A stretch of 62,919 nucleotides of DNA from a virus. Taxonomy: Duplodnaviria > Caudoviricetes. A model generated the notes under the pieces. That model worked only from the letters and a program-made list of their open reading frames with translations, searched no databases and was not told the origin of the DNA. Made by a program: the position numbers and the translations under genes. Shown in pieces: positions 2,429 through 60,485 of this stretch (position 1 is its first letter; each line of letters starts with the position of its first letter). The stretch spans positions 1-62,919 of IMG/VR virus record IMGVR_UViG_3300021962_000100; one strand, written 5' to 3'.

Positions 2429-4846
2429 TTAGAGGATGAATGGATAGGTAGTAGTTCCAAAAACATACCCTCCATCTGCAAATGGCTCACCACCATATTG
2501 ACTCTTGATTCTAGCTTCTTTGTAAGCCATATCAAATGCTTTTTGATAGTCACCAGTTTTAGCTAAGTAATATTGAATTCTATCCTCTAATGTTTGACCA
2601 TTAGCACCAGTTAATGGTTTTTCTATACCAGTAGGTGTAACAAATCCATAATCATACTCTGACATATACTGTGGAGTAGTAACATTCATGTTTTGTCTGC
2701 GACCCATTTCTAAATCAGCATCCATAGCGGCACCAAAAGTACCAAACGTTCTTCTATTAACATTAGCTGTTCTTTGATCTTTACGTCCTTTTTGAGAGTC
2801 TAAAGCTTGATTAAGTAACTGTGTTCTAGCAAGCATATTAGAATTATTAATAGCTGCTTGCTGTGCATTTGTTTCTCTTTGTCTATCAACGTTTCTAGAT
2901 TGCACTCCAGCAACAGCATCCATACTAGCTCTTAAACTTTTACCAAGCATGTCTTTTAACATAGCTTGTTTTTTACCAGAAGAACCAGAAGTACCAGACA
3001 TAATTGAATCAGCAACTTGATTAAAGAGAGCATTAGCTTGATCAGTTTTAGTTTGATATTCCTCATATGCACCTGGTAATTGCGCACTACCAGGAAGTAC
3101 CACATTTGATGCAGCAGGATTAACTTGCATAAGAGCATTTCTCATGACATTTTTTTGAGCAGCTTTACTCCAATGAGGCATAGGTTGCATCATTGCTTTT
3201 TGCACCTTACCTCTTTTACCATTACAGTTACATTCTTCCATGTTAGTAACAGGGAATCTTTTAACTTCTCCAGTAACAGGATCTTCACAAACACATTCTA
3301 ATTCTTCAGTAGTACTTTGACATGACGGATCCATAGGTTGACAAACTCCATTTGCATCTTTTGGTGCAGGTTTTGTATTACCATTTGCATCTTTATAAAC
3401 AGATCCATCTGCATTTTGACAAAGACATGGAGTTTCTTCTGGCTCTTCATTTTCTAAATAAACAGCTTTTTCATTAAATGTTTCTTGAACCTCTTTTGTA
3501 TTACATCTATCAAAAATTGCTTTAGATGCAGCACCAGGTGCCATATGAGTACGTCTACTTCCTGTTTTTTGAAATGCAACTTCAGGATCTGTTAGTTCTT
3601 CATATGTTGCTCCATTTTTAATCATATTACAAATAGCATCTTCCCAACCTGAACTAGGTCTTCCACCTCCTACAGCACCTCTTGCAGGAACTCTTTCACG
3701 ACCTTGTTGATACCAACCTTGCGCATTTGGTCCAGCACCGCTAACTGTACCTGAGTTCCAACCTGCTCCGGGATTTGCTTGTACTTTAGTAGCTTTGATA
3801 TTATTTACAGTAACTTCACTATCACCTGGTCCACCAAATTTAGGCATACCACCCATAGCCATTTCTGGATTGTAAGGGAAATCATACCCACCCATTTCCA
3901 TACCGTAGCCTGCATAAGCAGCACCTCCATATGCCATCATACCTTGTTGCATCATTTCTGGAGGAGGCATAGAACCTTGTGGTACCATTTGATCCATGCC
4001 TTGTTCTGGCATAGCTACAGGAGCTCCACTAGGCATTTGTTGCGGATAAGCAGGTTGACCTTGACTTTCATTCATCATCATTTGCTGATCCTGCATAGCT
4101 TGTTCAGGAGCCATCTGTTGCATTTCTTGTGCCATCATAGGATTTTGTTCCTGTGGCATTTGAGGATTTACACCAGGATTGGCAGATTGTGCAAGTGCAT
4201 CAGCTTGAGCTTTTAGTTCTGGCATTAAATCTTCTTCAGAAATTCCATTTGCTTCCATGTATGGTTTTGCCATAGAAGGAACACCTTGTGGAAATCCTTT
4301 CATTGATTCTTGTACAAGAGCTAAAGCACCAAGCTTCATGATGTAATTCTTAATCATGATAGTAGCAGTATTTCTTTCTAACTTGCTAGTATCAGGATCT
4401 AATAGAATTGACTTATATTTATTGATGTTATATGGCTTTGCAAGTTCTGCTGGAGTATATCCGCCTTTCTTTGGGGTTTTATTAAACATTGCAAGTACTG
4501 CAGGATCATTTATTCTTAATGAAGATGTATCACTAAAAATAAAAGTATCATCAGGTAAGTTTAATGGAACGCCACCTTCATGGTGTCTTTTACCTTTGAT
4601 CTTAACATGATCTGGAATTGATTGTCCACTAATAGGACCAAATGCAGTTTCTCCACCTTCAGCTTCTAGGTTAGCTTCATCTCTTGGTACTGCAGAGATA
4701 CTATCTTTTACACCTTTATAAAAGGTTTTATCAGATGCTGTATAATCTGCGCCACCAAAAGCTCCAGGATTTAATGATAATGACCCATCCACCTGCTTAC
4801 CGTAAGCAGCTTTTTCTAATGGCATTTTTGTAATTCTAACTCTCAT
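2429..4846 (-). CDS. Putative virion cargo protein (EAEGGE...HHEGG domain, Met/Gln/Pro low-complexity linker, multiple xxGG motifs)
   Basis: 805-aa ORF in the cargo cluster downstream of the tail stabiliser gene. Confidence 0.6.
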   Translation of the reverse strand: MRVRITKMPLEKAAYGKQVDGSLSLNPGAFGGADYTASDKTFYKGVKDSISAVPRDEANLEAEGGETAFGPISGQSIPDHVKIKGKRHHEGGVPLNLPDDTFIFSDTSSLRINDPAVLAMFNKTPKKGGYTPAELAKPYNINKYKSILLDPDTSKLERNTATIMIKNYIMKLGALALVQESMKGFPQGVPSMAKPYMEANGISEEDLMPELKAQADALAQSANPGVNPQMPQEQNPMMAQEMQQMAPEQAMQDQQMMMNESQGQPAYPQQMPSGAPVAMPEQGMDQMVPQGSMPPPEMMQQGMMAYGGAAYAGYGMEMGGYDFPYNPEMAMGGMPKFGGPGDSEVTVNNIKATKVQANPGAGWNSGTVSGAGPNAQGWYQQGRERVPARGAVGGGRPSSGWEDAICNMIKNGATYEELTDPEVAFQKTGSRRTHMAPGAASKAIFDRCNTKEVQETFNEKAVYLENEEPEETPCLCQNADGSVYKDANGNTKPAPKDANGVCQPMDPSCQSTTEELECVCEDPVTGEVKRFPVTNMEECNCNGKRGKVQKAMMQPMPHWSKAAQKNVMRNALMQVNPAASNVVLPGSAQLPGAYEEYQTKTDQANALFNQVADSIMSGTSGSSGKKQAMLKDMLGKSLRASMDAVAGVQSRNVDRQRETNAQQAAINNSNMLARTQLLNQALDSQKGRKDQRTANVNRRTFGTFGAAMDADLEMGRRQNMNVTTPQYMSEYDYGFVTPTGIEKPLTGANGQTLEDRIQYYLAKTGDYQKAFDMAYKEARIKSQYGGEPFADGGYVFGTTTYPFIL

Positions 4847-4855
4847 TTTGTAAAG

Positions 4856-7800
4856 TTATATAAATTCTATTTGACCTCCAGCGGCAAGGATTCTACCAAT
4901 CTCTTCTTGTGTAAGATCATACTCTCCACCTTTTTGATATCCTAATTGACCCCCTCTTTTTACAAAGGCTGCATTACCTACTACAGAATTGAAACCAGTT
5001 GAACCTCTACCTTGTCCTTTAGACATGATTCTTTGATTCAAACCACTATAGCCACCTCTATAATCTAACTCATTTACAGGTTCTCTATTGTCTGCACTAG
5101 TTCTTGCATTAAGATAATCATCATTATATATGTTATCAATAGTTCTTGCACCAGACTGGATAGCTGATCCTGCTAATTGTTTACTGTTTAATATTCCATC
5201 AGGATTTAAAGTTCTTGCAGTATTGATATCATATGTAACTGAAAAATCTTGTGGTGCTATTGTGCTTGAATTATAGTTAGGGTTATAACAAGGACTGTTA
5301 GGATCCATAACATCTTTTTCTTCACATGGTCCCATTGCTTGACCATTTGTATTTTGATTTGGATCAAATGGACCTGTACCGCTAAATTGACCACCTGGAT
5401 CAAATGTAGGTATATAACCTCCAAACTCAAGCATCATAGGATTTCTCTGCATTGACTGCTGATTAATCTTTTCTTGCTCAGATCTTTGTTGCATCTCCTC
5501 TATACCTTGCAATCTTTGACTGCGAGTATTTAAAATATTATTTAAGCCTTCATCAATTTGACCTTGCTCAGTACTATTCTGTAAAATCTGATCTAATGAT
5601 TTTTGCTCATCTGCATTAAGGTCAGAGCGTACATCTCCCCAATTAGATTCAAGATAGTCTCTATTTGATTGTGTGCTTCTATTTGCTTTTACTTTTGCCA
5701 TATAATCAGCATCAGACATAGGGGCAGTTTGACCTTCTTGAGCAGGACCTTCATAGAAAGCATTAGGATCTTGACGCATCAATCTTCTATTGTTTCTATT
5801 CATTGCTCTTTCACCTGCTCTAATAGAAACTCTAGATTCATCTTCTAAACCTTTAACATTACTTCTTTGCTTTTCAGGAGCTTCAATACCACCTATTTGA
5901 TTATTATCATTTTGTAAGTAGTCTGGTATTTTATCAGTATTCTCATCAGCTTTAAAGGTAGGATTCGTATTATTATTTGTTGTAGTTCCAGTAGCATTAG
6001 GATTATTAGGATCTACCCATCTTCCAGTTAAAGTCATAGTTTTTTTACCTGACCACCATGGACCTTTCTCATATTTATAATCATACATGTATCCTGCTTT
6101 TCCAGGTTCAGCTGGTCCAGTAAGTCCTGGCATTTGACCAGAAGGCATTTGTAAGGGTTTACCATCAGCTGTAGTTGCAGGTCCTTGTTGTGACATCCAC
6201 ATAAAGTCATAGTTCTTTCCAGTATTAGGATTCATCTTAAATGGAGAAAACATATTTCCAAGTTGTTGTTTCAAACTTGGTGCCGTTGGATATGGTGAAT
6301 AACCACCACGTCCATCAGGATATACTTGTTGCTGTGTTTGTTGACCTTGTTGTTGTGTTGTAGTTTGTCCAGAAGGTGCTGTAGCATATGGTTTAGATGG
6401 GTTATAGGATTCAGTAATTACCCCTCTATTTTTTAAATCTAAATATGCTTGATAGTTATCTCCACTTGTTATGTTTTGATTGTATTGTTGGAATGCTGGT
6501 GATTGAAATGCTGGATCAACTTTATTATTAGCTGGATCCATTTTGCTAGAATCAACAACATAACCTGGCTCAGCTTTTATTAATCCACCTCTTCTATACA
6601 TAAAGGGATCATTTACATCCTTAGATTGAATATCATTGTTATCATATTCTACTATAGGACTGATAGACATTTCATCTCCACCATATACAAATTTTTGTAG
6701 GTTACCCATTTGATCCATTTGCGGATTAGTAACTGGACCTCCAAAAGCTTGTGTTGGTAAATTAGGATCTGGAAAGAACTGATCTTCTAATTGACTTTGC
6801 ATTGAAGCATTTTGCCAATTATTGTACAACTCAGCATTTCTTGCATTCCATTCTGGATTTGCAGAACCTGAAAGTGAGGAGTACTGATTACCTTGTGCGT
6901 CAGTTGTTAAATAACTTCCACTATTTATAAGTACTAATTCTTCAGGTGTTAATTCCTCGTTATTAAGTAATTTTTGATTGATTCTATTAAATTCTGCTTG
7001 ATCAACCGGACTACTCCATACTTTATCTTCCATGACTCCTGTTGATGGATCATCTGGTATCATTGACTGAACATAAGGTAATGTATTAAAAAATGCATCC
7101 TGTTCATTTTGTGCAGCTTCCGCTCTTGCTTTTGCTGTTGACGTTTGCCAATTACCAGCTGTAGAAAATACAAATGGTTCAATAACACAACCATTTTCAT
7201 CACACTGTTCTTCTTCAGATACAGCAGGATTATTATTTAATGGAACGTTGTTAGATTTAGTAGGATCTGCCGCAGAATTTATTGTAGCAGCTTGTTTTTT
7301 AACAATCTTGCCAGGAAAACTATAAGATTCTTCTGAATAACTATATGGTCCATAAGTTGTACCATATCCCATACCTGGCATTACTCCAGATCCCATACCC
7401 ATAAGCATTTGAGCAGGAATACCTTTAGCACTCCATTCTCTTTTACCTGTCCACCACGGTCCTTTTTTATATTCAAAATCTACAAAAGGACCTGTTTGAC
7501 CTTCTGTGGATTGATTAGTATTAGCAGATGAACTTGCAGGCATTTGTGGAGAAATAATTTGTAGATAATTAGGAAGTCCTGGAACACCCATATATCCTGC
7601 AGCAATATCTCCAAAAGCTTTTTGCCAATCCTTATTGGCTTGATTCATTTGTCTTTGTTCTCTTCCTCTTTTAGCCTGAGGTATTTCAAAACCTGCTCCA
7701 TGAACATCATTCATTGGCTGTTGAAATATATTTGATGTAGATCCAGTATATGCCTGTAAGTGATGCATTGGATTTTCTGTATCCATCTCCATACCTAGTT

Positions 7801-8503
7801 GAGCCATTGGAAAACCTGGTTGTTGTTGAGGTTGTGGTTGATTAGTCTTATCATATATTTCTTTAGCATAATATTCATTACCTAAATCTTTAATACCACG
7901 TCTAAAGTTATTTACTAAACTTTGTCTACCATTAATAGGTGTATCAGTTATACTAGCAGAATTTACATTATCCTGTTGCATTCCGTCCGCAGCTTTCTTA
8001 AGACCTCTTACTACAGTTTTAACAAATTTCTTTTTACTGATTGATCCTCCTTTTTTCATTTCTTCTGAGTCTTCTAGATTATCTTCATTAAAAGCAAGTT
8101 CATCACCCCAACCTTCGGCATCTTCTTCTGTTTCTTCAGATACCCATGGTTCATTAATGGTGTATAATGGCGGTGTTACTGGTTCTTCAGTTGTCTCATC
8201 TTCAATAACTTGCTCATCTTTGAAAGGTATTTGAGTATCTTGTTTATACAACATACTTACTACCTCATCAATTTTATCCATTGCATCATAATAACTTAAG
8301 CCATAAGTGTCTTGTAATACTGATGCAATATTGTCAGCATCCGGATCTAGAGTTAATTCATCAAGAATAGTATCAACTATATCTTGTTGCCCTCCACCAG
8401 TTTGCATACCATATTGTGCTTTCTGTAAGAATTTTGCAGTTTTATTTATATAAGTCCCTTGATTATTAGGATCTTTATAAATTCTTACCTTTACTTTTTT
8501 CAT
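4856..8503 (-). CDS. Putative virion cargo protein, largely low-complexity, with many xxGG/KAxxG motifs and a C-terminal DLT tag
   Basis: 1215-aa Q/N/P/G-rich ORF with an internal KGPWWxGK repeat. Confidence 0.6.
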   Translation of the reverse strand: MKKVKVRIYKDPNNQGTYINKTAKFLQKAQYGMQTGGGQQDIVDTILDELTLDPDADNIASVLQDTYGLSYYDAMDKIDEVVSMLYKQDTQIPFKDEQVIEDETTEEPVTPPLYTINEPWVSEETEEDAEGWGDELAFNEDNLEDSEEMKKGGSISKKKFVKTVVRGLKKAADGMQQDNVNSASITDTPINGRQSLVNNFRRGIKDLGNEYYAKEIYDKTNQPQPQQQPGFPMAQLGMEMDTENPMHHLQAYTGSTSNIFQQPMNDVHGAGFEIPQAKRGREQRQMNQANKDWQKAFGDIAAGYMGVPGLPNYLQIISPQMPASSSANTNQSTEGQTGPFVDFEYKKGPWWTGKREWSAKGIPAQMLMGMGSGVMPGMGYGTTYGPYSYSEESYSFPGKIVKKQAATINSAADPTKSNNVPLNNNPAVSEEEQCDENGCVIEPFVFSTAGNWQTSTAKARAEAAQNEQDAFFNTLPYVQSMIPDDPSTGVMEDKVWSSPVDQAEFNRINQKLLNNEELTPEELVLINSGSYLTTDAQGNQYSSLSGSANPEWNARNAELYNNWQNASMQSQLEDQFFPDPNLPTQAFGGPVTNPQMDQMGNLQKFVYGGDEMSISPIVEYDNNDIQSKDVNDPFMYRRGGLIKAEPGYVVDSSKMDPANNKVDPAFQSPAFQQYNQNITSGDNYQAYLDLKNRGVITESYNPSKPYATAPSGQTTTQQQGQQTQQQVYPDGRGGYSPYPTAPSLKQQLGNMFSPFKMNPNTGKNYDFMWMSQQGPATTADGKPLQMPSGQMPGLTGPAEPGKAGYMYDYKYEKGPWWSGKKTMTLTGRWVDPNNPNATGTTTNNNTNPTFKADENTDKIPDYLQNDNNQIGGIEAPEKQRSNVKGLEDESRVSIRAGERAMNRNNRRLMRQDPNAFYEGPAQEGQTAPMSDADYMAKVKANRSTQSNRDYLESNWGDVRSDLNADEQKSLDQILQNSTEQGQIDEGLNNILNTRSQRLQGIEEMQQRSEQEKINQQSMQRNPMMLEFGGYIPTFDPGGQFSGTGPFDPNQNTNGQAMGPCEEKDVMDPNSPCYNPNYNSSTIAPQDFSVTYDINTARTLNPDGILNSKQLAGSAIQSGARTIDNIYNDDYLNARTSADNREPVNELDYRGGYSGLNQRIMSKGQGRGSTGFNSVVGNAAFVKRGGQLGYQKGGEYDLTQEEIGRILAAGGQIEFI

Positions 8504-8521
8504 AAAACTAGTTCTATATAT

Positions 8522-8533
8522 TAATATACTAAA
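8522..8533 (-). promoter_or_regulatory. Putative late promoter element (GTATATTA class)
   Basis: Plus-strand TAATATAC 18 nt upstream of the ATG at 8503. The same motif precedes several other minus-strand genes. Confidence 0.5.
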
Positions 8534-8562
8534 TTTTAGTTTAACCGATAAACCTAATAAGT

Positions 8563-11500
8563 TTACTGTTCCTCAACTATATAACCTTTTGCAACATACT
8601 CTTGTATCTGTTTAGGAGTTAATTCCATTTCAATTATACCACCTTCTTTAAATCTTTTTGGAGGTGGTTTTAAATGTGGATTTTTAAGTAACATTCCTTC
8701 ACCCACTGTATGATGAGACTGTATTCCAGTACCATCTGGCCAAGTAAAACCTTTTAAGCTTCCTTTTGATTTAAAATACTTCTTAACGTAAGCTCTTTCT
8801 TTCTTAGATAATTCATCTGTTTGGAATACAGTATCAACTCCTTCTTTAGGTCCTTTGGTAACTCTATCGTATACTGTATCATAAGTTATTTTCCCAAGAA
8901 GTCCAAGTGTTGGGACAGCCAATATAAGAGGTACAATGACCTGTCTAAAACTTTTTATTTGATTTGCTTGCTGTAAATATTCTCTTTCAAGTTCATTATA
9001 CTCATTGACCTGCTTATGATAAAAATCTAATTGTGCTTGAATTTCATCATATTCTTTTTTTAATTCAGGGTTTCTTTTACCAGCAAGTCTTTCAGCTTTT
9101 TCATCAACAAGTTTATCTAAGTTTCTCATTAGCTGCTGCAATGAATCAGATCTTTCTCTAAGTTTTTGCAATCCTCCATTAATCATATTTTCAATTCTCT
9201 TATAGTCCTGAAAAGTTTTGATTAAATCTGAATCTATTTGACCAGAGGGTAAACTGTTTGCTAAGCTTTCAAAATTATAACGCCTTGTTAAAAGTGATTT
9301 TGGTTTTAAAGCAGTGTTAAGAATTGAGTATTGTAATAAGTCTTTAGCTTCATTAAAGTCACCTAAAATAGATGAGTAATATGAAGTTCCATAAGTATCT
9401 CCTTCAACTATTGATGCAGATCTTACACCAAGTCTTTCAGTTATTTCATTATATATCTTTTGTATATTTTTTTTGCTGGCATCACTCATTGCCATTTTTC
9501 CTAAAATACTGTTAGATAACAAGTCACCTGTTTTATTAATTGATGACATTGCTTCCTCATTATAAAGAGGACCACTATGATGCTTAATAATATCTGTAAC
9601 AATTTCTTTTTGTTCAGGAGTAAATACTCCACCACCGGATGTTGCAAATTTTACACTATTAACATATTCAACTGGATTAGTTGCATTAACATTTAATCCA
9701 TATTGCATTTGACCTAATATATTTCCTTGATGGTTTGGATTACCAAGTTTAACAGTATTTAAACCAAAACCTCTTAAAGTTCCTCCACCTTGTGTAATAT
9801 CCCATTTTTTAAATGAGTTCTCTAAATCTTCTATTGTTCCTCTATGTGATACTTGTCTATTGTGTACAGAATTATTTATATAAAAGTCATTTAAAGCAAG
9901 TTGCATTCTTTCAGGATTTTGTGCAACAGATTCTATATCTCCAATAAAATCCATTAATCTTAATGCTTCAATATTTGCATTAACGTCAGATAATGCCTCA
10001 GTAGATAACTGTGGTCCTATTGATCCTTTAGATCCTACTAAACTTTGTACATAAGTTTCTTGAGCTTTTTTAACAGTATTAACATTCCCATAATTTATAT
10101 AAGTGTCAATTCTATTAACATGTTTACTTTTACTTGATTCATACGCGTCTACAATTGTTTTAATTGCAGGATCAATTTTATCCATGAATTCTTTTGCAGA
10201 AATATTAATTTCTAAACCTAGCATTTCAGGATCAACTAAACTTGTTTTCATTAGGTTTATAAAACTTCCGGTTGAATTGGGATGTTTTTCTTTAATTTTA
10301 TTACCTAACCTTTCAATGGCTTTCTTTTGTTGAGCATAATATTCATCTGGAAAAAATTGTCTAAATAATTCTAATTCAATAGATCTTTTTTCTCCAGTTA
10401 ATGGATTAGAAGTCCAATTGACTTTTACTGTACCATTTGGATTAGTATGAATTATATTAAAATCAATATTGCCTTCCTCACCTGGAATACCAATATTATG
10501 AACTTTAGCAGGTCCTTTATCTAGTACATGCTGTAAAGTATTTTTTACTTTGTTATCATAATCTTTATCTAAAATAAGTACATCTACATCTCCAGTTAAA
10601 TGTGGTAAACCCCCTTCTGTAACACCAACCGCTGAACCATAAACTTTACCTCCAGTAAGTTGTTCAACATGTTTTATATTATCATTTAATGTTGTTAAGT
10701 ATTCTGGTGATACGACTGGATTACTGTTACCTTCATGGATATATTCTAGTTTTTTATCTTTAGGACTAATAACCATAGATTTAGATGGCATTTCAACTAA
10801 AGCTTGTACAGGTTTACCAGTTTTAAATGAAGTAATTTGACCTTCTCCTTTTGTGATTGCTTCGGATAAAGGAGAACCTTTTTCAATTTTTAAACCTTTA
10901 TCTGTTATTTGAATATTTGGAATATTTCTTTCAAGACGCGCAATCTCTCCTTGTTTTTTAAAACTATCTAGTAACTGTCGTGAATCTATTCCTGTACGTT
11001 CTAAAGCATGTGGTAAAATATTTTTTACTTTATCAACTTCTGCAAGATATTGATTTGAAACACCAATTGCTTTATGAGTTTGATCTATGTATTGATTATA
11101 AGCATTACGAGATATTTGATTAGATTCCTCAGCTAATTTTCTTAAAGCTTTATCTCTGAATGTAATTGCTTTTGCTGTATTTTTTGAGAAATTTTTTAAT
11201 CCTCTTTTACCCTTTCCAATAGCACCAATTAATAAACTTAAACCAGCTTCATTTACATTTGGGTTCTCCTCATCTAAGAAAGCATCAGCCATACCAACAG
11301 CAGATAATACAGTAGGAAGGTTGTTTAATACCTTACTCATTATATTAAAGTTCTGTGGTTTATCTTTTACAATATCATATAGTCTTAATGGGAATTTTTC
11401 TCCTGTAGTTTTTCTATAGTCTTTGTAACGATCCTTAAGCATTTTAGGAGTTATCTTATCATAAGCATTTTTGATAATACCCTGCTGTAATAGATCCTCT

Positions 11501-14136
11501 CTAATCTCCATAAGAAAAGGAACTTTTTCTGTACCCTTACTTTGATTTAAAAAATAATCAACGCTTTTACCTATATAATTTTTTCCCGGAGTCATTATAC
11601 CATATATACCTTTTTTTTCTTCTTCTAAGCCAGGTATAGTTAATTGTTCAGCAGCAGGAGTAACAAGATCAAGTTTAGCTAACTGATTATCTAAATAAGA
11701 TGGTCCTAGTTCTTTTGCACCATAGCTGTTTATTTTATGACCAAATTCATGAGAACCTACAAGACGTAAGTCTTCTGGTTTAAATGCTCCAGGACGTATA
11801 CCTATTGCATTGCCACTAGTAGAATAAAATGCTGCATGTCCACCAAGCATTCCTTCAGCTTTTGCTATAAGATTATCAGATTCCATCAATAAGGCATCTA
11901 GCTCATCTGCTTGATCTTGATATTCTGTCTTTGAAATTTTTCCTTCATTCAATGCAATTTCTAACTGATCATACTCTTCATTTAATGCGTCATTTACTTC
12001 TTTTTCATTTTTGTAAAAAACATTTACATTTTTTAAGTCATTAAGTCCCTGAACAAATGTTTCAGGTGTTTGTCCTTGAAGTGCTGGAGTATTATCTATT
12101 AAGTTTTGTAATCTTCTTTGACCCTCAGGTGTTTTCCATTGTTCTAATTTTTCTGCTCTTATTGTATCTAAAACCTCTGCTATTGTTTCATTTTCTTGAG
12201 CAGAATAATTTGGACCCATGTCATCTAACATATATTTAATAGGCTCATTTGCTTTATCAAAACCTAAAACTTCAGACTTTGCTAATTCCTCTTCAATATT
12301 AAGTGGTTTTTTAGTTGGGTATGGTTCTACAGTTGCAGCCGTTCTATATTCATCAGGAAGAATAAACTCTTTTTGAGGTTGTCCAGCAAACTCTAATGCT
12401 GCAGGATTATTACTTACATTATAACCCTGTAATTTAGAAAATGGAACATTAGTAGTCAATAAATTATTTACATCACCTCTTTGACCTGCCACAATTCCTA
12501 CTTCACCTTCTGTACCAAAAGGTTGATTTGTCCACCATTTACCTGCGGTTTCTTGTGGAAAAAATATACCAGCCATTTCAGTTCCTTCTGGATACATTGG
12601 GTTATATAATTCACCACTATTTAAATATGTTTTTACATTAGGGGATTGTAATTGTTCAGGAGTTAATTCTGAAACTGCACCTAATTCATAATCATGGTAT
12701 TCAGCAGCTAAAGGATTTTTACTAAAACTTTGATTAGGAGGTTCTACTCTGTACAATGGAACTCTAGTATCAATAGCTCTAACTGTTTTAGCTAATGGAC
12801 TTCCTGTAGATGAAGTAGATCCTACTGGTAATAAACCAGTACCCGTATTACCTGGATTAGGGCGCATAGGACCAGCTTGGCCCCATTCACCATAAGAAGA
12901 TTTTAATATATCACTTTCAACCATTGCCATTTTATAGGCATTTGCTTCTTCTGATAATGCTACTAATGGATTTTTTCCTCCAGCAAGAGTTAATGCATTC
13001 ATACCAATATCAAATGCTGCAGTTCCTGCATTTGCCCAACTTGGATCATCAACAAACTTTTGAGTTGATTCTACAGTTTCTGGAAGCATCTTCATTCCTT
13101 GAGCATATAAACCAACAGGATGCCACCATGAAGCAAAATCAATAGCTCCCGTAACAAGATTCTTATCAGCCCCGTCTTGATATCCTGTTTTTGCTTTCAT
13201 GTCTTCATATGCTTCATAGTTATAAGGCATAGTTTCTGTCGGAGACATTGCATAATGAAAAGCATCTAGAGGATTTAATAGAATAGAACGTGCTCTATTA
13301 TAATAACCTTCAGCTGAATTTGGGTTTTCAAATGATACATGATTAGGATCTCCAAGATTTAGTTGTTCCATGGTAACTTTACCAGGACCACTTTGACTAT
13401 TGTATCCATTTTCATCTGCCACTCTCCTTAATACATCTGGATCTTGACTAACATAAATATTAAGGGCTTTTTTCTTAAGCCTTTCATAATCCTCCTTTGC
13501 TTTCTGGATAGATTCTTCAACGCTTAATTTAGAATTTTGGGATCTTAAATCTTGAGCTACTTGATATACAACATTATCATAGTTATCATTAAGAGCTTTT
13601 TCAGCCAAGAAACTTCTTTTATTGTTATACTCTTGTTTAGCAGCTTCCACATGTCCCCATTGTTCATCTGTAGTTGGAGCTAATTGAGCTAAAGTACCTT
13701 GAATTGTTTCTGATTGAAAAGCATTTGGGTTAGCTATAGCAAAAGCTTGTTCTTCTTCTAATTTTCTTTTTGCTTCAGCATCTAACTTTTGTTGAAGTGC
13801 TAAAGCTGCATCTTCTTTTTTCTTTTGTTCAGTAGCTGTTTTAAGAGCTGTGGCATTTGCTCTTGTTGGTGGTCCTTGAGAGGCAGCCTGTACTTTCATA
13901 GCACCAGTTCTAATATCTGGTTTACTGTATATAGATTGCACACTAGAAGAACCTACAGGTTGCCCCATACCAGCATTAAGCTTTTGCAATATCATTGCAT
14001 CTCTTACAGGAGCACCATCCGAATAAATCCAGTTACCTGAATTATCTTTTTTAAATTTATTTCCAGGATAATCTCTAAGCTCCACTTCACCTCCTACTGG
14101 AAATTTTGGGATACCAACAATTTTATACTTTGCCAT
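8563..14136 (-). CDS. Multidomain cargo/effector protein: ART-like, zincin (HEFGH), nucleotidyltransferase-like, C-terminal TM and ELT tag
   Basis: 1857 aa. Motifs LYR...GKWWT...QKEFILP; HEFGH; VYGS-x13-DVD...ID; hydrophobic VIVPLILAVPTLGLLG. Confidence 0.6.
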   Translation of the reverse strand: MAKYKIVGIPKFPVGGEVELRDYPGNKFKKDNSGNWIYSDGAPVRDAMILQKLNAGMGQPVGSSSVQSIYSKPDIRTGAMKVQAASQGPPTRANATALKTATEQKKKEDAALALQQKLDAEAKRKLEEEQAFAIANPNAFQSETIQGTLAQLAPTTDEQWGHVEAAKQEYNNKRSFLAEKALNDNYDNVVYQVAQDLRSQNSKLSVEESIQKAKEDYERLKKKALNIYVSQDPDVLRRVADENGYNSQSGPGKVTMEQLNLGDPNHVSFENPNSAEGYYNRARSILLNPLDAFHYAMSPTETMPYNYEAYEDMKAKTGYQDGADKNLVTGAIDFASWWHPVGLYAQGMKMLPETVESTQKFVDDPSWANAGTAAFDIGMNALTLAGGKNPLVALSEEANAYKMAMVESDILKSSYGEWGQAGPMRPNPGNTGTGLLPVGSTSSTGSPLAKTVRAIDTRVPLYRVEPPNQSFSKNPLAAEYHDYELGAVSELTPEQLQSPNVKTYLNSGELYNPMYPEGTEMAGIFFPQETAGKWWTNQPFGTEGEVGIVAGQRGDVNNLLTTNVPFSKLQGYNVSNNPAALEFAGQPQKEFILPDEYRTAATVEPYPTKKPLNIEEELAKSEVLGFDKANEPIKYMLDDMGPNYSAQENETIAEVLDTIRAEKLEQWKTPEGQRRLQNLIDNTPALQGQTPETFVQGLNDLKNVNVFYKNEKEVNDALNEEYDQLEIALNEGKISKTEYQDQADELDALLMESDNLIAKAEGMLGGHAAFYSTSGNAIGIRPGAFKPEDLRLVGSHEFGHKINSYGAKELGPSYLDNQLAKLDLVTPAAEQLTIPGLEEEKKGIYGIMTPGKNYIGKSVDYFLNQSKGTEKVPFLMEIREDLLQQGIIKNAYDKITPKMLKDRYKDYRKTTGEKFPLRLYDIVKDKPQNFNIMSKVLNNLPTVLSAVGMADAFLDEENPNVNEAGLSLLIGAIGKGKRGLKNFSKNTAKAITFRDKALRKLAEESNQISRNAYNQYIDQTHKAIGVSNQYLAEVDKVKNILPHALERTGIDSRQLLDSFKKQGEIARLERNIPNIQITDKGLKIEKGSPLSEAITKGEGQITSFKTGKPVQALVEMPSKSMVISPKDKKLEYIHEGNSNPVVSPEYLTTLNDNIKHVEQLTGGKVYGSAVGVTEGGLPHLTGDVDVLILDKDYDNKVKNTLQHVLDKGPAKVHNIGIPGEEGNIDFNIIHTNPNGTVKVNWTSNPLTGEKRSIELELFRQFFPDEYYAQQKKAIERLGNKIKEKHPNSTGSFINLMKTSLVDPEMLGLEINISAKEFMDKIDPAIKTIVDAYESSKSKHVNRIDTYINYGNVNTVKKAQETYVQSLVGSKGSIGPQLSTEALSDVNANIEALRLMDFIGDIESVAQNPERMQLALNDFYINNSVHNRQVSHRGTIEDLENSFKKWDITQGGGTLRGFGLNTVKLGNPNHQGNILGQMQYGLNVNATNPVEYVNSVKFATSGGGVFTPEQKEIVTDIIKHHSGPLYNEEAMSSINKTGDLLSNSILGKMAMSDASKKNIQKIYNEITERLGVRSASIVEGDTYGTSYYSSILGDFNEAKDLLQYSILNTALKPKSLLTRRYNFESLANSLPSGQIDSDLIKTFQDYKRIENMINGGLQKLRERSDSLQQLMRNLDKLVDEKAERLAGKRNPELKKEYDEIQAQLDFYHKQVNEYNELEREYLQQANQIKSFRQVIVPLILAVPTLGLLGKITYDTVYDRVTKGPKEGVDTVFQTDELSKKERAYVKKYFKSKGSLKGFTWPDGTGIQSHHTVGEGMLLKNPHLKPPPKRFKEGGIIEMELTPKQIQEYVAKGYIVEEQ

Positions 14137-14138
14137 AA

Positions 14139-16625
14139 TTATATTTGTTCAATAGTGTAACCTAAACTTCTTAATCTTTTTACTTCAGCTTCTGTAAGTT
14201 CAACTTCATCTCCAACTTTATGTTCACCTCCTTTTTGTTTCTTAGGTTTATAATTATAGTTATAATCACCATTAAGATACTTTAATAAATCACCCTGTTG
14301 TGCTCCATATAAATCAAGTAATTGAACTATATCATATGGTAGTTTATCTTCATCGGCAAGTCTATAAAGATTGTCTAAAGTTTCTTTAGTTATTTTACCA
14401 GCTTCCCATGGTGTTTTATGTTCACTTAAATAAAACAATGTTGATAGTTTTCTTGCTTCAATTTCAGATGGATCAGATACATAGTTAAACTTTTCTTGAT
14501 CAAAACTGTCACTCCAAGGACCATCGTTAAAAGCTTTTAGATTTATTGGAGGAACTGTTTCCATAACATCCAAAAGAGCATCACCTTTATGACTTACTTC
14601 ATGAACATAAGTAGTATTAAATTTACCAGGATCAGCTTTTGTATATAAAAACATTTTGTTCTTTTCAGGATCCCAATAACCATCCTCACGCATGTCTTGG
14701 GGCTTTTGACTTGTAATTGAAAAATATGTTGGTCTATTTAAAGCACCAATGCGCTCATTTGATTTTCTAACATCTTGCTTTTTAAGTTGTTTATCATAAT
14801 ATTCTTGAAAACCTGAATTTTTTTTATTATAAATATCATTTTCTTCATTCATAATAGCAAATAATTTCTGATTTAAATCATATAACTTAGGATCATTAGG
14901 ATTGTTTTTTTCTATTGTTTCAATTTGTTTATATAAATCTAGATAAGTTGTTCCAAATTTATTTTTTATATAATCATCCTCTATGCCAGCGTTAGCATAA
15001 GGATCACGCTTTGAATATGGTTGTGTTTTGTAATAATTTTCTACAAAATCTTTACTCTTCCAATACATATCAGATTCTTTCTTTGGAACCTGTTTAGTAT
15101 TGTATCTTTTTCCTTTATATACAAATTCTTTTTCTCCGGACTCTCTTGCATTTCTAAAAGCTGAATTAAATGAACTATATTCTGAGTAATCATTCAATCC
15201 CCATTTTTTAGGATTCCAAGCTTCATACCATGATATATAATCCTTACCATACTTATCTTTATCTCTTTCCCATTGAGATTTTAATTTAACATCTTTTTCA
15301 GTTTTTACTCTTATACAATCTCCAAATTCATCTTTTGCATATCCTGGAGGACATGGACTTCCTCCTTCTTCCATTTGATTTAAAGAAGGAACAGAGATAT
15401 CTTCTACAATATAACCTCCTTTTCTATACTCTTCTATTTCTTCTGGAGTAAGTTCAGTTTCAATATATCCTCCATCATTATATGAACTCTTGTACTCACC
15501 AGGATCATTGGGGCTTTTTTTAAAGTACATGTTATTAGTCTGACCCTTTTTATTTTTGCCACCAACAATACCATCAGGCAATTTATTATTACTACTTAGA
15601 TATAATAGATAATTGGTTTTTTCTTCAGGTGTCATATTACTAGCTCCTGCCTTTGCACCTACATAATTATTATAAATATCTTCACCAGATTCTCTTAACT
15701 TATCTGTCCAATCTCTGTCATCCATCCCACCAAATAGAGTAGATAATTCATGACCTATTCCAGATAGATTAGAACCAATAAAACCTACTGCTGGAGCTAA
15801 AAATTGAAAATGACTCATAGGATTACTTACAGCATCTTCAATAGCTTCTGCAGTATATCTTCCTGCATTAGCATGTCTAAAGTTATCTACTGGATCATCA
15901 TTTGGTCCTGCAGCAGCTTCACCAGCTAATCTTGCTCTTTCCATTGGAAAACCAAGACTATTGTTTACTTTCCATTCTGCGGCTTTAAGATCACTCATAT
16001 TTTTTGGAGGCAATATCAATTGATCTGTTACATCAGGATAATATATATCTTGTTCTCTTTGTATCTCAAATAATCTATCTGCTTCTTGTTGATCAGATAT
16101 TTGTGGAGACATTCTTAAGTCACTTATTTTTTGTCTTCTTTCAGTATTAGACATTGGCACTTTAGCCTCATACTTTGGAGCATTTTGTACTACTGGAGAA
16201 CCTACTGGTTTACCTTTACCATAATTAAGATCTTGTAATATCATGGTATCTGTTACCGGTGCTCCAGATTCATATATCCATTTACCACTCTCATCTTTTT
16301 TAAACCTGTTTCCTGGAGCTCTATCTAATTGAACATATCCACCATTATCAAAAAACATTGGTGATGAACTACCTGGCGCTATTGGGCTATAAGTTTTACT
16401 TTTAACTTTTTTCTTTTTAAATAAAGCATTAGGTTTACTCAAAGCACTCTTCTTAAATAAAGAATTCTTTTTAAACAATCTATTAGTTGCATTTAAGTCA
16501 CTAGAAAACTTACTTCCACCCTTTTTCATTTGAGGGGTTGTATCTGTACCTACTGCTTTTTTAACTTTATTCTTAGGATCATTCAGATTTTTAAGAACAT
16601 CAATAAGTAATTTCTTATTATACAT
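14139..16625 (-). CDS. Multidomain cargo/effector protein: DxFRH...HE...DxxNN toxin-like domain, zincin (HEVSH), two ELT tags
   Basis: 828 aa. Domains are separated by MKKGG, FDNGG, YNDGG, MEEGG and KQKGG. Confidence 0.6.
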   Translation of the reverse strand: MYNKKLLIDVLKNLNDPKNKVKKAVGTDTTPQMKKGGSKFSSDLNATNRLFKKNSLFKKSALSKPNALFKKKKVKSKTYSPIAPGSSSPMFFDNGGYVQLDRAPGNRFKKDESGKWIYESGAPVTDTMILQDLNYGKGKPVGSPVVQNAPKYEAKVPMSNTERRQKISDLRMSPQISDQQEADRLFEIQREQDIYYPDVTDQLILPPKNMSDLKAAEWKVNNSLGFPMERARLAGEAAAGPNDDPVDNFRHANAGRYTAEAIEDAVSNPMSHFQFLAPAVGFIGSNLSGIGHELSTLFGGMDDRDWTDKLRESGEDIYNNYVGAKAGASNMTPEEKTNYLLYLSSNNKLPDGIVGGKNKKGQTNNMYFKKSPNDPGEYKSSYNDGGYIETELTPEEIEEYRKGGYIVEDISVPSLNQMEEGGSPCPPGYAKDEFGDCIRVKTEKDVKLKSQWERDKDKYGKDYISWYEAWNPKKWGLNDYSEYSSFNSAFRNARESGEKEFVYKGKRYNTKQVPKKESDMYWKSKDFVENYYKTQPYSKRDPYANAGIEDDYIKNKFGTTYLDLYKQIETIEKNNPNDPKLYDLNQKLFAIMNEENDIYNKKNSGFQEYYDKQLKKQDVRKSNERIGALNRPTYFSITSQKPQDMREDGYWDPEKNKMFLYTKADPGKFNTTYVHEVSHKGDALLDVMETVPPINLKAFNDGPWSDSFDQEKFNYVSDPSEIEARKLSTLFYLSEHKTPWEAGKITKETLDNLYRLADEDKLPYDIVQLLDLYGAQQGDLLKYLNGDYNYNYKPKKQKGGEHKVGDEVELTEAEVKRLRSLGYTIEQI

Positions 16626-31622: not shown

Positions 31623-32321
31623 TTAATTATTGCGTTCTGCAGTTTCTGTACCTCTAGAGAACTGATTTCCTGATTCCATATCACCAGCAAGAATACTCAC
31701 TGCTTCATCAATTATTACTTCTATTATATCATCTTTAAATTCACATTCTACATTTTGAGTAGATTGTAGATTAGTATAAGGATCTACACAACCATCAATT
31801 TGAATTTTTATAGGTTGTCTATAGTAAATTATATTAGCTGATTCAATTTGAAAATCACCATTTGTATAAATATGTGTAGTATTTCCAATTAAAGTAGCAA
31901 ATGTTTCTCCCCATTCAAAACTAGGTTGTTTACCTTTATCTCTTAAAAGAACATTAAGATCTCCTTCCTGTGCTAAATAAACAGTCATCCTTCTTTTAGT
32001 ACAGCATTCTTGTTTAGCATATACATCTACTCTTTTCCATTGTAGATAATCTCCAGGAAGATTTCCAAAATAATAATATTCTTTATCTGTTAAATTAAGT
32101 GCTTGAGTATTTAGTAAAACTTGAAGATCATCTTTTCTTCTTGTTGAACCTTCATCACCTTCTTTTAAAATATTAATACCATGCAATTGTCTTCTAGCCC
32201 ACTCAACTTGTGCTTTATTAAAAGCTTCAACAATCTGCCAGCAAGTTATATTATCATAATCTTGACTATCCAGTTTATTTAACCGTTGCTTGATCTTTAT
32301 TTCAATTGTACTGTTTAACAT
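31623..32321 (-). CDS. Putative tail ring/connector protein
   Basis: 232 aa. LNKLDSQ...AFNKAQ...LPGDYL...YYRQP...EVIIDEAV pattern of crAss-like ring proteins. Confidence 0.65.
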   Translation of the reverse strand: MLNSTIEIKIKQRLNKLDSQDYDNITCWQIVEAFNKAQVEWARRQLHGINILKEGDEGSTRRKDDLQVLLNTQALNLTDKEYYYFGNLPGDYLQWKRVDVYAKQECCTKRRMTVYLAQEGDLNVLLRDKGKQPSFEWGETFATLIGNTTHIYTNGDFQIESANIIYYRQPIKIQIDGCVDPYTNLQSTQNVECEFKDDIIEVIIDEAVSILAGDMESGNQFSRGTETAERNN

Positions 32322-32755
32322 TATTTTTTCATTTTACTAAGTGTAATTGCAAGTCTTGCTCTTTGACCAAGCTTACCACCCTTTTTAGCAGCTGCTGCCA
32401 ATTTAGCTTTAGGAATAGTTTCTCCTTTCTTAACACCAAGTTGTTCTCTAAGAGCACCTGGCTTTTTAATAGCACCCTGAATCCAGTTACCACCCTTTTT
32501 TTGTTTTGGTACTTCAGCTGCTTTTTTTGCTTCTTTTTTAGCCGCTCTATTTTCTTTGATGTTTTTACCTACTCTAGTACCAATAGCGGATAAACCTGTA
32601 CCAATTATTGTTGCTGCAATTTTAGCACTTGGCGTACTAAATGCACCTGGTTTTTTAGGCCATGGAACACACTTACCATCTATACAAGCATGTTCTGGAG
32701 GACAATCATCACCATAATTACATCCTTGTTTTGATTTTGTACTTTTAACTGCCAT
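32321..32755 (-). CDS. Small basic protein (Cys mini-domain, hydrophobic segment, NWIQGAIKKPGAL module)
   Basis: 144 aa, Lys-rich. A KKGG motif precedes the C-terminal module. Confidence 0.7.
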   Translation of the reverse strand: MAVKSTKSKQGCNYGDDCPPEHACIDGKCVPWPKKPGAFSTPSAKIAATIIGTGLSAIGTRVGKNIKENRAAKKEAKKAAEVPKQKKGGNWIQGAIKKPGALREQLGVKKGETIPKAKLAAAAKKGGKLGQRARLAITLSKMKK

Positions 32756-32757
32756 AA

Positions 32758-32997
32758 CTATTTCTTTTTACGTTTATTTTTTAAAGCACCTGCAATAACA
32801 TCTGCTCTAGTAATTTTATTTTTAGGTGCAGCTAATGCAGCAAGTTTTGCTTTTTTAACTGAGCCACCTTTTTTCATAGTAGGGGCACTATAGTTTGTAG
32901 TTCCTGTTTGAGGAATACCATAAATTTCAGGTTTAGTCGTTGAACCACCTTTTGCCATTTTTTGACCACCACATTTAGCACATCCTAATTTTTTCAT
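32758..32997 (-). CDS. Small basic protein with MAKGG/MKKGG motifs
   Basis: 79 aa, Lys-rich, tightly packed in the operon. Confidence 0.7.
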   Translation of the reverse strand: MKKLGCAKCGGQKMAKGGSTTKPEIYGIPQTGTTNYSAPTMKKGGSVKKAKLAALAAPKNKITRADVIAGALKNKRKKK

Positions 32998-33009
32998 AAT
33001 ATATAATTT

Positions 33010-33481: not shown

Positions 33482-33483
33482 AA

Positions 33484-33708: not shown

Positions 33709-33710
33709 AA

Positions 33711-33863: not shown

Positions 33864-33864
33864 C

Positions 33865-46740: not shown

Positions 46741-46743
46741 ACA

Positions 46744-60461: not shown

Positions 60462-60485
60462 ACTATAAGATACAAAAAATATAGA

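Follow-up and report, generated by a model that had tools for sequence, protein, structure and literature searches.

An aromatic/Met-x-x-Gly-Gly element recurs at module joints and ends of putative cargo proteins in a divergent crAss-like phage

Large proteins encoded just past the muzzle gene of a divergent crAss-like phage, together with small basic proteins encoded beside its capsid gene, carry a short linear signal, [Y/F/M]-[K/Q/A]-x-G-G with a K-A-x-[Y/M]-G variant, which is selected at module joints and protein ends. We infer that a single factor, common to all of the proteins that carry this element, reads it in trans. It would most likely be a maturation-protease site, and may also target cargo to the capsid, a reading to which we assign a probability of roughly 40%. 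No description of an aromatic/Met-x-x-Gly-Gly motif was found in the literature searched.

Genome context and motif-bearing proteins

The window analysed here is an incomplete contig of 62.9 kb, cut at both ends, and a family not found in it is not thereby absent from the genome. The contig belongs to a divergent crAss-like phage whose relatives are uncultured. One gene block holds the Crassvirales virion module, with a crass-type major capsid protein, a muzzle and tail ring proteins, as indicated by Pfam matches to Crass_capsid (1.2e-32), CrAss_Ring_1 (3.4e-10), CrAss_Ring_2 (2.1e-23) and crAss_MUZ (Table 1), and the window also has PHROGs matches to portal (5e-97) and terminase (3e-55). The closest portal match, at 34% identity, is that of Leptolyngbya phage Lbo-JY46, whose structural region contains 3 motifs for 3.1 expected. 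A tblastn search of 50,697 phage records for named cultured relatives gave no match to the 828-aa, 1215-aa and 805-aa proteins. A 422-aa gene between portal and capsid appears to encode an acidic coiled-coil scaffold; these leads are weak, and we found no support for the gene as a protease. The CHAP/NlpC-P60 protein adjoins the holin and was taken as the endolysin, not as a maturation protease.

The four proteins encoded past the muzzle gene (828, 1857, 1215 and 805 aa) are putatively packaged and injected, judging from this gene position, which is the feature that matches crAss001. In the accessible part of the crAss001 study (PMC10172136, Bayfield et al. 2023), gp45, gp46, gp47, gp49 and gp50 are cargo of the virion, kept within capsid and tail and believed to leave partly unfolded, and their genes likewise lie directly downstream of the muzzle gene. 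The 828-aa family shows no detectable similarity to gp45 (hhalign probability 0.05).

Table 1 Features of the window. Residue numbers refer to the protein named in the row.
Feature	Position	Strand	Remarks
Muzzle protein, 1798 aa	16625..22021	-	Pfam crAss_MUZ, E 2.6e-35; context marker
828-aa mosaic protein, first gene past muzzle gene	14139..16625	-	MKKGG 33, FDNGG 92, YNDGG 382, YRKGG 400, MEEGG 418, KQKGG 796; homologues with swapped domains
Internal mini-module of 828-aa, residues 382-422	15360..15482	-	three motif copies 18 residues apart: YNDGG-YIETELTPEEIEEYRKGG-YIVEDISVPSLNQMEEGG
HExxH (zincin-like) domain of 828-aa, residues 451-790	14256..15275	-	HEVSH 675-679 = 14589-14603
C-terminal mini-module of 828-aa, residues 796-828	14142..14240	-	KQKGG-EHKVGDEVELTEAEVKRLRSLGYTIEQI
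1857-aa protein	8563..14136	-	FPVGG 12, MINGG 1651, FKEGG 1829
N-terminal module of 1857-aa, common to residues 92-145 of 828-aa	13942-14103 (1857-aa); 16191-16352 (828-aa)	-	homology
HEFGH of 1857-aa, residues 796-800	11737-11751	-	HExxH
C-terminal mini-module of 1857-aa	8566-8652	-	homologous to C-terminal modules of 828-aa and 1215-aa
1215-aa protein	4856..8503	-	GG sites 152, 588, 608, 639, 1028, 1037, 1150, 1184, 1192, 1209
KAxxG-type sites of 1215-aa	residues 28, 170, 233, 643	-	conserved in homologues
C-terminal mini-module of 1215-aa	4859-4939	-	
805-aa protein	2429..4846	-	KAAYG 12, MAYGG 304, MEMGG 316, MAMGG 329, SQYGG 782, FADGG 789
Seven small very basic ORFs beside capsid gene	32321..34221	-	pI 10.2-11.2; 3/7 carry motif
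158-aa ORF with third HExxH of the window	60051..60527	-	HEAVH at 116-120; no family match

The 828-aa protein has 145 homologues, among which domains are swapped; the contigs that carry homologues reach about 137 kb. Precomputed Pfam annotations on these homologues include SET, ADP-ribosyltransferase (including ART-PolyVal, PF18760, on homologues P0027 and P0074), VanY, glucosaminidase, SLT and LysM/YkuD domains. The 828-aa protein itself has no above-threshold Pfam match and its whole AF2 model no PDB match, the weak Atlas leads being LPD23 (0.83) and M78 and SprT-like (0.79). In the accessible part of Iyer et al. 2017 (PMC5512222), polyvalent proteins are described as long mosaics of many enzymatic domains carried into the host with the DNA, in which zincin-like domains are predicted to process their own polypeptide. 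The 828-aa family corresponds to this type as there described, being a phage-encoded mosaic with varied effector domains and an invariant HExxH plus Glu, and the mosaic, HExxH-bearing make-up of these proteins agrees with the preliminary description. A link between polyvalent proteins and Crassvirales was not found in the published literature searched.

All three motif residues of HExxH (H, E and H) in the zincin-like domain, and a Glu further downstream in 'SEIEARK', are invariant (13 and 18 sequences). The AF2 model of this domain (pLDDT 76, pTM 0.72) gives long structural alignments solely with zinc metallopeptidases, all of them weak, with Z of 5.4 and 5.2 for PepO, 5.1 for neprilysin and 4.9-5.5 for M1 aminopeptidases, and the best Foldseek match, IrrE, is also weak (E 0.68). 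No Pfam peptidase family exceeded the threshold for this domain, and a profile search against PDB sequences returned nothing relevant. Within the window, no protease-like candidates were seen other than the HExxH domains inside cargo proteins. Loci L015, L016 and L018, like most stand-alone forms of ~350 aa, have the zincin domain but not the motif, which weakens a strict zincin-motif pairing; the domain may therefore be an effector instead of the processing enzyme.

Mini-modules containing the motif lie both inside and at the end of these proteins: a regular expression for the mini-module gave 92 matches in 124 proteins, 49 internal and 43 ending at most 8 residues from the C-terminus. The C-terminal copy of the 828-aa protein scores 25.6 bits against Pfam DUF7210 (E 8e-6 when the piece is searched by itself), short of the 27-bit gathering threshold; neither the internal copy nor the modules of the 1857-aa, 1215-aa and 805-aa proteins match DUF7210. 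The YRKGG-Y copy sits in the middle of the conserved mini-module, at a place where the C-terminal copies show no more than x-G-Y, and at least some motif instances are therefore structural. A repeated and probably folded mini-module, as opposed to free linkers, accounts for part of the motif signal. The 828-aa, 1857-aa and 1215-aa proteins have homologous modules at both their N-termini and their C-termini. The 805-aa protein, which has a Met/Gln/Pro-rich low-complexity stretch at residues about 205-340, has parts in common with a 1769-aa protein from locus L002. Among the small basic ORFs, the motif is carried by those of 144 aa (QKKGG, AKKGG), 79 aa (MAKGG, MKKGG) and 118 aa (YDDGG, MKTGG, AKMGG).

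Enrichment, conservation and placement of the element

Motif counts were compared with 300 within-protein shuffles, a composition-matched background. In the four cargo proteins (4705 aa), [FYM]xxGG occurs 18 times, against 3.5±1.8 in the shuffles, and the wider [FYMAQ]xxGG 23 times, against 8.1±2.7 (0/300 shuffles in both cases), while bare GG occurs 45 times against 32.4±5.2 (2/300). No enrichment is seen for the control [FYM]xxG[not G] (36 vs 38.8; 215/300), showing that both glycines matter. The seven small basic ORFs (633 aa) contain 4 copies of the narrow form for 0.5 expected and 9 of the wide form for 1.5 expected, counts again reached by 0/300 shuffles. The remaining 31 proteins, which total 11032 aa and include terminase, portal, capsid, muzzle and tail proteins, are at background, with 5 copies of [FYM]xxGG for 5.1 expected (165/300); this set excludes the collagen-like 1938-aa protein (29% Gly) and, apart from the seven small basic ORFs treated separately, ORFs below 100 aa. 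The muzzle protein, with 6 GG for 9.0 expected, shows no motif enrichment, and a truncated 790-aa protein has one [FYM]xxGG for 0.4 expected. The preliminary description had assigned the motif to the cargo and small basic genes and, by eye, found it rarer in the major capsid protein, portal and terminase; both statements agree with these counts. All of the instances that it listed were recovered in their genes, and two more were found, YRKGG in the 828-aa and MINGG in the 1857-aa protein.

KAxxG, which had been put forward as a second form of the motif, is weaker overall, with 6 copies in the window for 2.1 expected (7/300) and no enrichment in 27 non-redundant zincin-protein relatives (13 vs 14.6). 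Nevertheless, the 21 colinear homologues of the 1215-aa protein retain all four of its sites of this type, in the form [LM][QK]KAxxG[MLI][QE], and one position of the small basic family is occupied by either '...AKYGM...' or '...AKMGGS...'. This conservation and this alternation indicate that KAxxG is a family-specific variant of the GG element.

The motif was defined after the window had been viewed, and its decisive support is replication in independent sequences. Matched ORFs of 13 independent related loci contain 72 copies of [FYM]xxGG for 12.1±3.3 expected, and the ORFs downstream of them 20 for 10.3 expected. In 27 non-redundant multidomain relatives, clustered at 50% identity, 103 copies were found for about 21.2-21.3 expected, and 65 homologues of the 118-aa small basic protein have 133 motifs for 12.2 expected, an 11-fold enrichment. 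[LIV]xxGG is not enriched in the 27 representatives (20 vs 30.1).

The sequence logo is compact, with information at positions -3 (Y.25, F.14, M.09), -2 (K, Q, A) and -1 (K, D, E) and at the glycine pair. It holds little information past GG, a compactness that resembles a protease site, and I, V and L together account for 0.34 at the second position after GG. In 21 colinear homologues of the 1215-aa protein, the GG pairs at motif sites are invariant or nearly so, with flanks 0.4-0.8 identical, whereas GG pairs outside the motif, at 36, 733 and 871, show no conservation. At site 588, GG is invariant and all neighbouring residues vary, which favors a protease site, but several other sites of this family sit within larger conserved blocks, which argues against one. 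Judged from these alignments, the motif is under strong purifying selection.

Internal BLAST breakpoints between the 828-aa protein and its homologues fall within 10 residues of a motif site in 164 of 291 cases (47.8 expected), confirming the earlier claim that the motif marks module boundaries. In the AF2 model of this protein, where the motif lies mostly between confidently modelled domains, 4/6 motif sites are inside segments with pLDDT <50 and 2/6 at segment edges, low values that may reflect a shallow, untidy alignment instead of disorder. Every one of the four cargo proteins has one site in its first 40 residues and another 14-30 residues from its end; large proteins show no clear concentration of the motif in the first 15 residues (12 vs 7.4; 8 vs 7.2; 9 vs 5.3). 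Where modules occur as separate small genes (loci L003 and L014), the element is kept at the very ends, as in ...YKKGGLLLKYR-stop, and since it persists at the extreme ends of single-module proteins, it is more than an inter-domain spacer.

The motif is a protein-level signal, not a DNA-level one. Its Gly codons (22 GGT, 19 GGA, 2 GGG, 1 GGC) show the same GGT/GGA mix as other Gly codons, and this ordinary mix rules out a recombination linker or a Shine-Dalgarno-like GGAGG. A DNA-binding hook is also unlikely, many copies being acidic (YQDGGE, MEEGGS).

Candidate functions of the element

The enrichment and its replication, the GG invariance, the location at breakpoints and the protein-level nature of the element are the demonstrated part of this analysis. 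For its function, the preferred reading is that a maturation protease would cut at or beside GG inside the procapsid or virion, trimming end pieces and separating modules. Long multi-enzyme polypeptides would thus enter by way of a single precursor and exit as smaller units. The element, or the adjoining mini-module, may double as a capsid-targeting tag, by analogy with the T4 capsid-targeting sequence. Known head-maturation proteases (T4, adenovirus) remove small terminal pieces, and the terminal sites of the four cargo proteins match such pieces. The lack of the motif in most stand-alone ~350-aa zincins is also consistent with a protease site.

The T4 head-maturation motif, read by gp21, is L/I-x-E and that of phiKZ is S/A/G-x-E, both ending in Glu. 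In T4, phiKZ and SPN3US, a short consensus recurs, as here, in head-packaged, ejected proteins, including propeptide-like ends, and the sites are read in head maturation by one phage protease whose gene is known. In the present phage, by contrast, the consensus is aromatic/Met-x-x-G-G, cleavage is putative, and neither a prohead protease nor a GG-specific protease family was found in the window, which counts against the protease-site reading.

Adenain sites in adenovirus core and capsid precursors read (M/L/I)xGG-x, and ASFV polyproteins are cut at GG-x. These systems share with ours a GG site that has a hydrophobic residue upstream of it and that is found in large precursors as well as in DNA-associated core proteins that are small and very basic. 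The register, however, is off by one: in the 27 representatives [FYM]xGG occurs 20 times for 21.7±4.3 expected, compared with 103 for [FYM]xxGG. The adenovirus parallel drawn in the preliminary description therefore does not hold for its hydrophobic-x-G-G register, the enriched one having an extra residue. A comparable likeness is seen with double-glycine leaders, of consensus L-S-x-x-E-L-x-x-I-x-G-G, after which C39 peptidases cut; the internal mini-module reads L-T-x-x-E-I-x-x-Y-x-x-G-G. Unlike those leaders, it has one more residue ahead of GG, the element lies internally or at the C-terminus, and its C-terminal copies are without the second GG. We rejected a C39 system, the copies not being N-terminal leaders and C39 having no match in the window. 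No Pfam or PHROGs match to an adenain (clan CE), ASFV or C39-type cysteine protease was found in the window ORFs of this incomplete contig.

Other observations also weigh against a protease site. Tandem copies lie 7-18 residues apart, and cutting there would free tiny peptides. The N4 vRNAP, which has an HExxH domain, is packaged unprocessed according to the accessible part of Iyer et al. (PMC5512222), where no cleavage motif is given and the words 'glycine' and 'linker' do not occur. In crAss001 cargo proteins the motif is near-absent (7 vs 3.5 expected), and the strings 'Cleav' and 'protease' have no occurrence in the accessible part of PMC10172136. A complex prediction of the zincin domain with the 79-aa basic protein and Zn (score 0.01, mark 0.32) weighs neither way.

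A non-cleaved docking or packaging motif is possible, if somewhat doubtful. The element, or the flanked ELTxxEIxxYxxxGY mini-module, would bind a common partner (scaffold, capsid interior, portal or other cargo), recruiting cargo and small basic proteins into the procapsid or ordering their exit, with repeats giving avidity. The many copies per protein, often in close tandem, would suit such a role, as would the retention of the element at the extreme ends of single-module proteins, the strong enrichment in small basic proteins of disordered appearance, and a mini-module that is C-terminal in 43/92 matches and moves among otherwise different proteins. Short segments of crAss001 gp45 bind the portal and tail barrel, with no cleavage reported in the accessible part of PMC10172136. 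Nevertheless, some copies have acidic residues around GG (YQDGGE, MEEGGS) and others basic ones (MKKGGS), a loose pattern for a single binding pocket, and the scarcity of the motif in crAss001 cargo implies that it is not a general crassvirus loading signal.

We consider it unlikely that the element is a structural hinge or turn that is not read in trans, in which small adaptor modules have their edge strands or helices, short ones, capped by Gly-Gly and a preceding aromatic residue, and recurrence stems from copying and shuffling of modules among mosaic proteins. The homologous terminal modules of the three largest cargo proteins are consistent with this, as are the sites within conserved blocks, the frequent hydrophobic residue two positions past GG and the strand-like variants 'LLYKKGG...' and 'GGLLLKYR' in locus L003. 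The central YRKGG-[YFW] of the mini-module also aligns with x-x-x-G-[YFW] in the C-terminal copies. A plain hinge, however, leaves the preference at -3 and -2 unexplained and accounts poorly for site 588, which keeps GG alone while all its neighbours change, and for the 11-fold enrichment in small basic proteins without sign of a fold; moreover, at none of the six sites in the 828-aa protein does AF2 predict a strand or hairpin.

An artefact of chance or composition, which the post hoc definition of the motif, the somewhat higher Gly content of the cargo proteins (7-9.7%) than of most others and the presence of some copies in Met/Gln/Gly-rich low-complexity stretches might suggest, is refuted by the within-protein shuffles (0/300), the unenriched [FYM]xxG[not G] control, replication in independent loci and in 50%-identity-clustered representatives, and the conservation of whole alignment columns.

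Implications for crassvirus cargo

An extended form of the maturation-protease reading, which is improbable taken as a whole, would make GG-punctuated polyproteins and small basic core proteins the ejected arsenal of a freshwater/environmental crAss-like lineage, matured in the head by a cargo-borne protease. The signature would then be both a capsid-loading ticket and a module-exchange seam, in an adenovirus-like scheme arisen independently in a tailed phage.

According to the accessible part of PMC10172136, it is not yet settled by what means crassviruses pack megadaltons of protein into their capsids and drive it out through the tail, and the cutting of polyvalent phage proteins into working units is, in that of PMC5512222, predicted only. 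A compact, countable signature at module joints offers a direct handle on both crassvirus cargo loading and polyvalent-protein processing. It predicts exact neo-termini, gives sites for mutation, delimits effector modules in thousands of uncultured phage proteins and marks small basic proteins that probably travel with the cargo. Even as no more than a docking tag or hinge, the element would still set out the module grammar by which a large family of mosaic phage proteins is built.

Gene order and the putative cargo region

Every long ORF of the window is carried by the minus strand. Because terminase, portal, crass-type capsid, ring and muzzle families were identified, we assign the contig, on its predicted proteins, to a distant crAss-like phage; a search of 50,697 phage records with the portal gave Leptolyngbya phage Lbo-JY46 as the closest match, at 34% identity. 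The phage genome is incomplete and is known from the 62,919-nt window alone. Between portal and capsid lies a gene whose acidic coiled-coil product has a basic tail and most resembles a scaffold.

Five large genes lie downstream of the muzzle gene, encoding proteins of 828, 1857, 1215 and 805 aa (here termed cargo proteins) and a truncated one of 790 aa. The virion cargo proteins gp45-gp50 of crAss001 are encoded at the corresponding place (PMC10172136), and gene order suggests that the post-muzzle proteins of the window would likewise be packaged and ejected; similarity between the 828-aa family and crAss001 gp45 was not detectable. The 790-aa protein shows no [FYM]xxGG enrichment, and has a glycine-zipper-like hydrophobic stretch (GGFMNSVMGGASGGGAAGSVFAGVGAVPGAIGGAIIGGGAY...), possibly a membrane-inserting segment of an ejection protein.

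The seven small basic ORFs are consecutive. One of them, at 33010-33255, matches Pfam DUF6321 (1.5e-17) and overlaps the ORF at 33218-33481 by 38 nt, and the 118-aa and 79-aa types are fused into a single protein in some homologues. Elsewhere, the collagen-like protein (29% Gly; Pfam Collagen, E 6e-226, 9 matched stretches) lies in a segment of 44-46% G+C, against ~33% in the rest of the window, and the 644-aa protein has Cys/Gly-rich ends, with PCCGGN near the N-terminus and CNCGGSCGGN near the C-terminus.

Features of the window and of related metagenomic loci (L numbers)
Feature	Position	Strand	Basis or detail
Collagen-like protein, 1938 aa	50991-56807	-	Pfam
Lysis pair: CHAP/NlpC-P60 (172 aa), adjoining holin-family protein (195 aa)	46222-47331	-	
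Large terminase	41095-43299	-	family search
Portal	38339-41089	-	family search
Crass-type major capsid protein	35332-36951	-	family search
Seven small basic ORFs	32321-34221	-	50-144 aa, pI 10.2-11.2 throughout
644-aa protein	26687-28621	-	no family match
Tail ring proteins 1 and 2	22021-23741	-	family search
Muzzle protein	16625-22021	-	family search
828-aa cargo protein	14139-16625	-	
Zincin domain, N-terminal part	within 14256-15275		
1857-aa cargo protein	8563-14136	-	
1215-aa cargo protein	4856-8503	-	
Repeat in 1215-aa protein	7418-7474; 6020-6076		residues ~344-362; ~810-828
805-aa cargo protein	2429-4846	-	
Low-complexity region, 805-aa protein	3827-4234		residues ~205-340
Glycine-zipper-like stretch, 790-aa protein	76-246		residues ~709-765
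Shared N-terminal GGE/QGGEI module	window 2429-4846; L002 15001-20310; L015 1211-3718; L016 3143-4960		residues ~60-130 in the window
Modules as separate small genes	L003 4441-6631; L014 3688-7066		

Enrichment of the motif

All motif strings listed in the preliminary description are present in the window proteins. Against 300 within-protein shuffles, the four cargo proteins (4705 aa) contain 18 copies of [FYM]xxGG for 3.5±1.8 expected and the seven small basic ORFs (633 aa) 4 for 0.5, values reached in 0/300 shuffles each, whereas 31 other proteins, excluding the collagen-like one (11032 aa), contain 5 for 5.1 (165/300), which confirms the contrast first noticed by eye. The control [FYM]xxG[not G] stays at background in the cargo proteins (36 for 38.8; 215/300), indicating that both glycines are required. 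The GGT/GGA mix of the motif glycine codons equals that of other glycines, which places the signal at the protein and not the DNA level. A chance origin of the enrichment is excluded.

Because inspection of the window preceded the definition of the motif, independent data carry the most weight. For the 828-aa protein, we found 145 metagenomic homologues; cultured phages yielded none. The 120 listed homologues provide 718 distinct GG contexts, and in 48% of these Y, F or M occupies position -3; K, Q and A are favoured at -2 and K, D and E at -1, with little information downstream of GG. For the 118-aa basic protein, 65 homologues together carry 133 motifs for 12.2 expected.

Loci sharing the zincin (HExxH) domain of the 828-aa protein numbered 13 after removal of L013, L017 and L014 (duplicates or near-duplicates). 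Their matched ORFs carry 72 motifs for 12.1±3.3 (0/300 shuffles), downstream ORFs 20 for 10.3 (1/300), and upstream ORFs, including muzzle and ring genes, 13 for 8.6 (28/300). A Pfam-confirmed muzzle gene directly precedes a motif-rich protein in L002, L004 and L005. From 1.84 billion proteins, we obtained 61 zincin-domain representatives (clustered at 50% identity; E ≤1e-30), with 103 motifs for 21.3 expected in the 27 of at least 600 aa and 19 for 4.0 in the 34 shorter ones. Stand-alone forms of ~350 aa mostly have none, L015, L016 and L018 have zincin proteins that lack the motif, and the count in crAss001 cargo proteins is weak (7 for 3.5). In L003 and L014, loci that gave no phage type, the same modules, including the zincin domain, are encoded as separate small genes, with strand-like motif variants at their ends ('MILYKDGE...', '...YKKGGLLLKYR-stop', 'LLYKKGG').

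The low-complexity region of the 805-aa protein is Met/Gln/Pro-rich and ends in a MAYGG, MEMGG, MAMGG cluster; the giant proteins of L004 and L005 contain comparable 'MMMANGGMM' stretches.

Placement, conservation and a recurrent mini-module

The 828-aa protein has mosaic homologues, and 164 of their 291 internal BLAST breakpoints fall within 10 residues of one of its six motif sites (MKKGG 33, FDNGG 92, YNDGG 382, YRKGG 400, MEEGG 418, KQKGG 796) for 47.8 expected, a clustering whose p-value overstates independence because the homologues are interrelated. This supports the earlier proposal that the motif marks domain boundaries. The AF2 model (mean pLDDT 62.8) places four of the six sites within segments of pLDDT <50 and two at the edges of such segments, between confident domains; since 302 of 828 residues are below 50 and the input alignment was untidy, this placement gives only modest support.

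The 1215-aa protein was compared with 21 colinear homologues: GG is fully or almost fully conserved at 152, 588, 608, 639, 1028, 1150, 1184, 1192 and 1209, with flanks 0.4-0.8 identical (at 588, GG alone is retained and all neighbours vary); conservation does not extend to the non-motif GGs at 36, 733 and 871. KAxxG, which the preliminary description treated as a second form, is conserved at all four of its sites in this family (consensus [LM][QK]KAxxG[MLI][QE]) but shows no enrichment across the zincin set (13 for 14.6); in the small basic family, it interchanges with ...MGG... at one position. The data show that the motif is a strongly selected, trans-family, protein-level signature at module joints and ends in one functional set of proteins.

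A unit of ~26-40 residues recurs, with aromatic-x-x-GG, 1-9 residues, then [ED]-L-T-x-x-E-I-x-x-Y-x-x-x-G-[YFW]-x-V-E. Its regular expression gave 92 matches in 124 proteins, 43 of them within 8 residues of the C-terminus, and it forms the C-terminal end of the 828-, 1857- and 1215-aa proteins, with an extra internal copy in the first. Internal copies retain the second GG (RKGG-Y) and terminal copies have G-Y only. The unit explains part of the motif signal: some instances are turns within a small adaptor that is probably folded, and so are not sites in free linkers. One copy scores 25.6 bits against Pfam DUF7210, just below the threshold of 27.

Two further repeats were observed. The 1215-aa protein contains two copies of 'Y[EK]KGPWW[ST]GK[KR]...', and neighbouring large proteins share a module, 'GGE..(I/V)..(N/G)...HxxGG.P..LP.DTFIFS' or 'QGGEI.IRN...D.AIIP', located at the N-terminus or close to it, even in loci without [FYM]xxGG.

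Candidate enzymes and possible function of the motif

HExxH occurs three times in the window, once each in the 828-aa and 1857-aa proteins and once in a 158-aa ORF. In the 828-aa protein, the domain at residues 451-790 has invariant H, E and H and, downstream, an invariant Glu, and its predicted fold (pLDDT 76) gives long structural alignments only to zinc metallopeptidases, all weak (Z 4.9-5.5; IrrE Foldseek E 0.68). The N-terminal part of this domain contains a ~45-residue piece, 'KKWGLNDYSxYSSFNSAFRNAR' (profile ~20-65), matched alone by dozens of otherwise different representatives (E 1e-7 to 1e-10), which looks like a separate mobile module. Family searches of the ORFs of this incomplete genome found no cysteine or prohead protease families; the CHAP protein was rejected as maturation protease and taken as an endolysin, as it adjoins the holin.

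We rank first, at a probability of about 0.4, a maturation-protease site, at which such an enzyme would cut and which may also target the cargo to the capsid. Several features are consistent with cleavage: the logo is compact, sites occur close to both termini, the motif is present in small basic proteins, and single-module genes of L003 retain it at their ends. Also consistent with it is the prediction by Iyer et al. (PMC5512222) that polyvalent proteins are processed by their own zincins. Against cleavage, family searches of the window gave no processing enzyme, zincins without motifs exist, and tandem copies would release tiny peptides if cut; Iyer et al. (PMC5512222) also describe the N4 vRNAP, which has an HExxH domain, as packaged unprocessed. 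A docking or packaging motif that is not cleaved comes second and is somewhat less likely, and a structural hinge of shuffled mini-modules, ranked third, is less likely still.

The adenovirus parallel drawn in the preliminary description is a resemblance and not membership: adenovirus sites have one spacer residue before GG, whereas [FYM]xxGG has two, and the one-spacer register is not enriched (20 for 21.7). Processing motifs are known in packaged proteins of T4 and phiKZ. One is likewise described for packaged proteins of SPN3US. In the literature searched, we found neither the motif nor DUF7210 described, and no account of polyvalent proteins in Crassvirales; Iyer et al. (PMC5512222) name no cleavage motif. 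The finding makes the question of cargo loading and processing directly testable.
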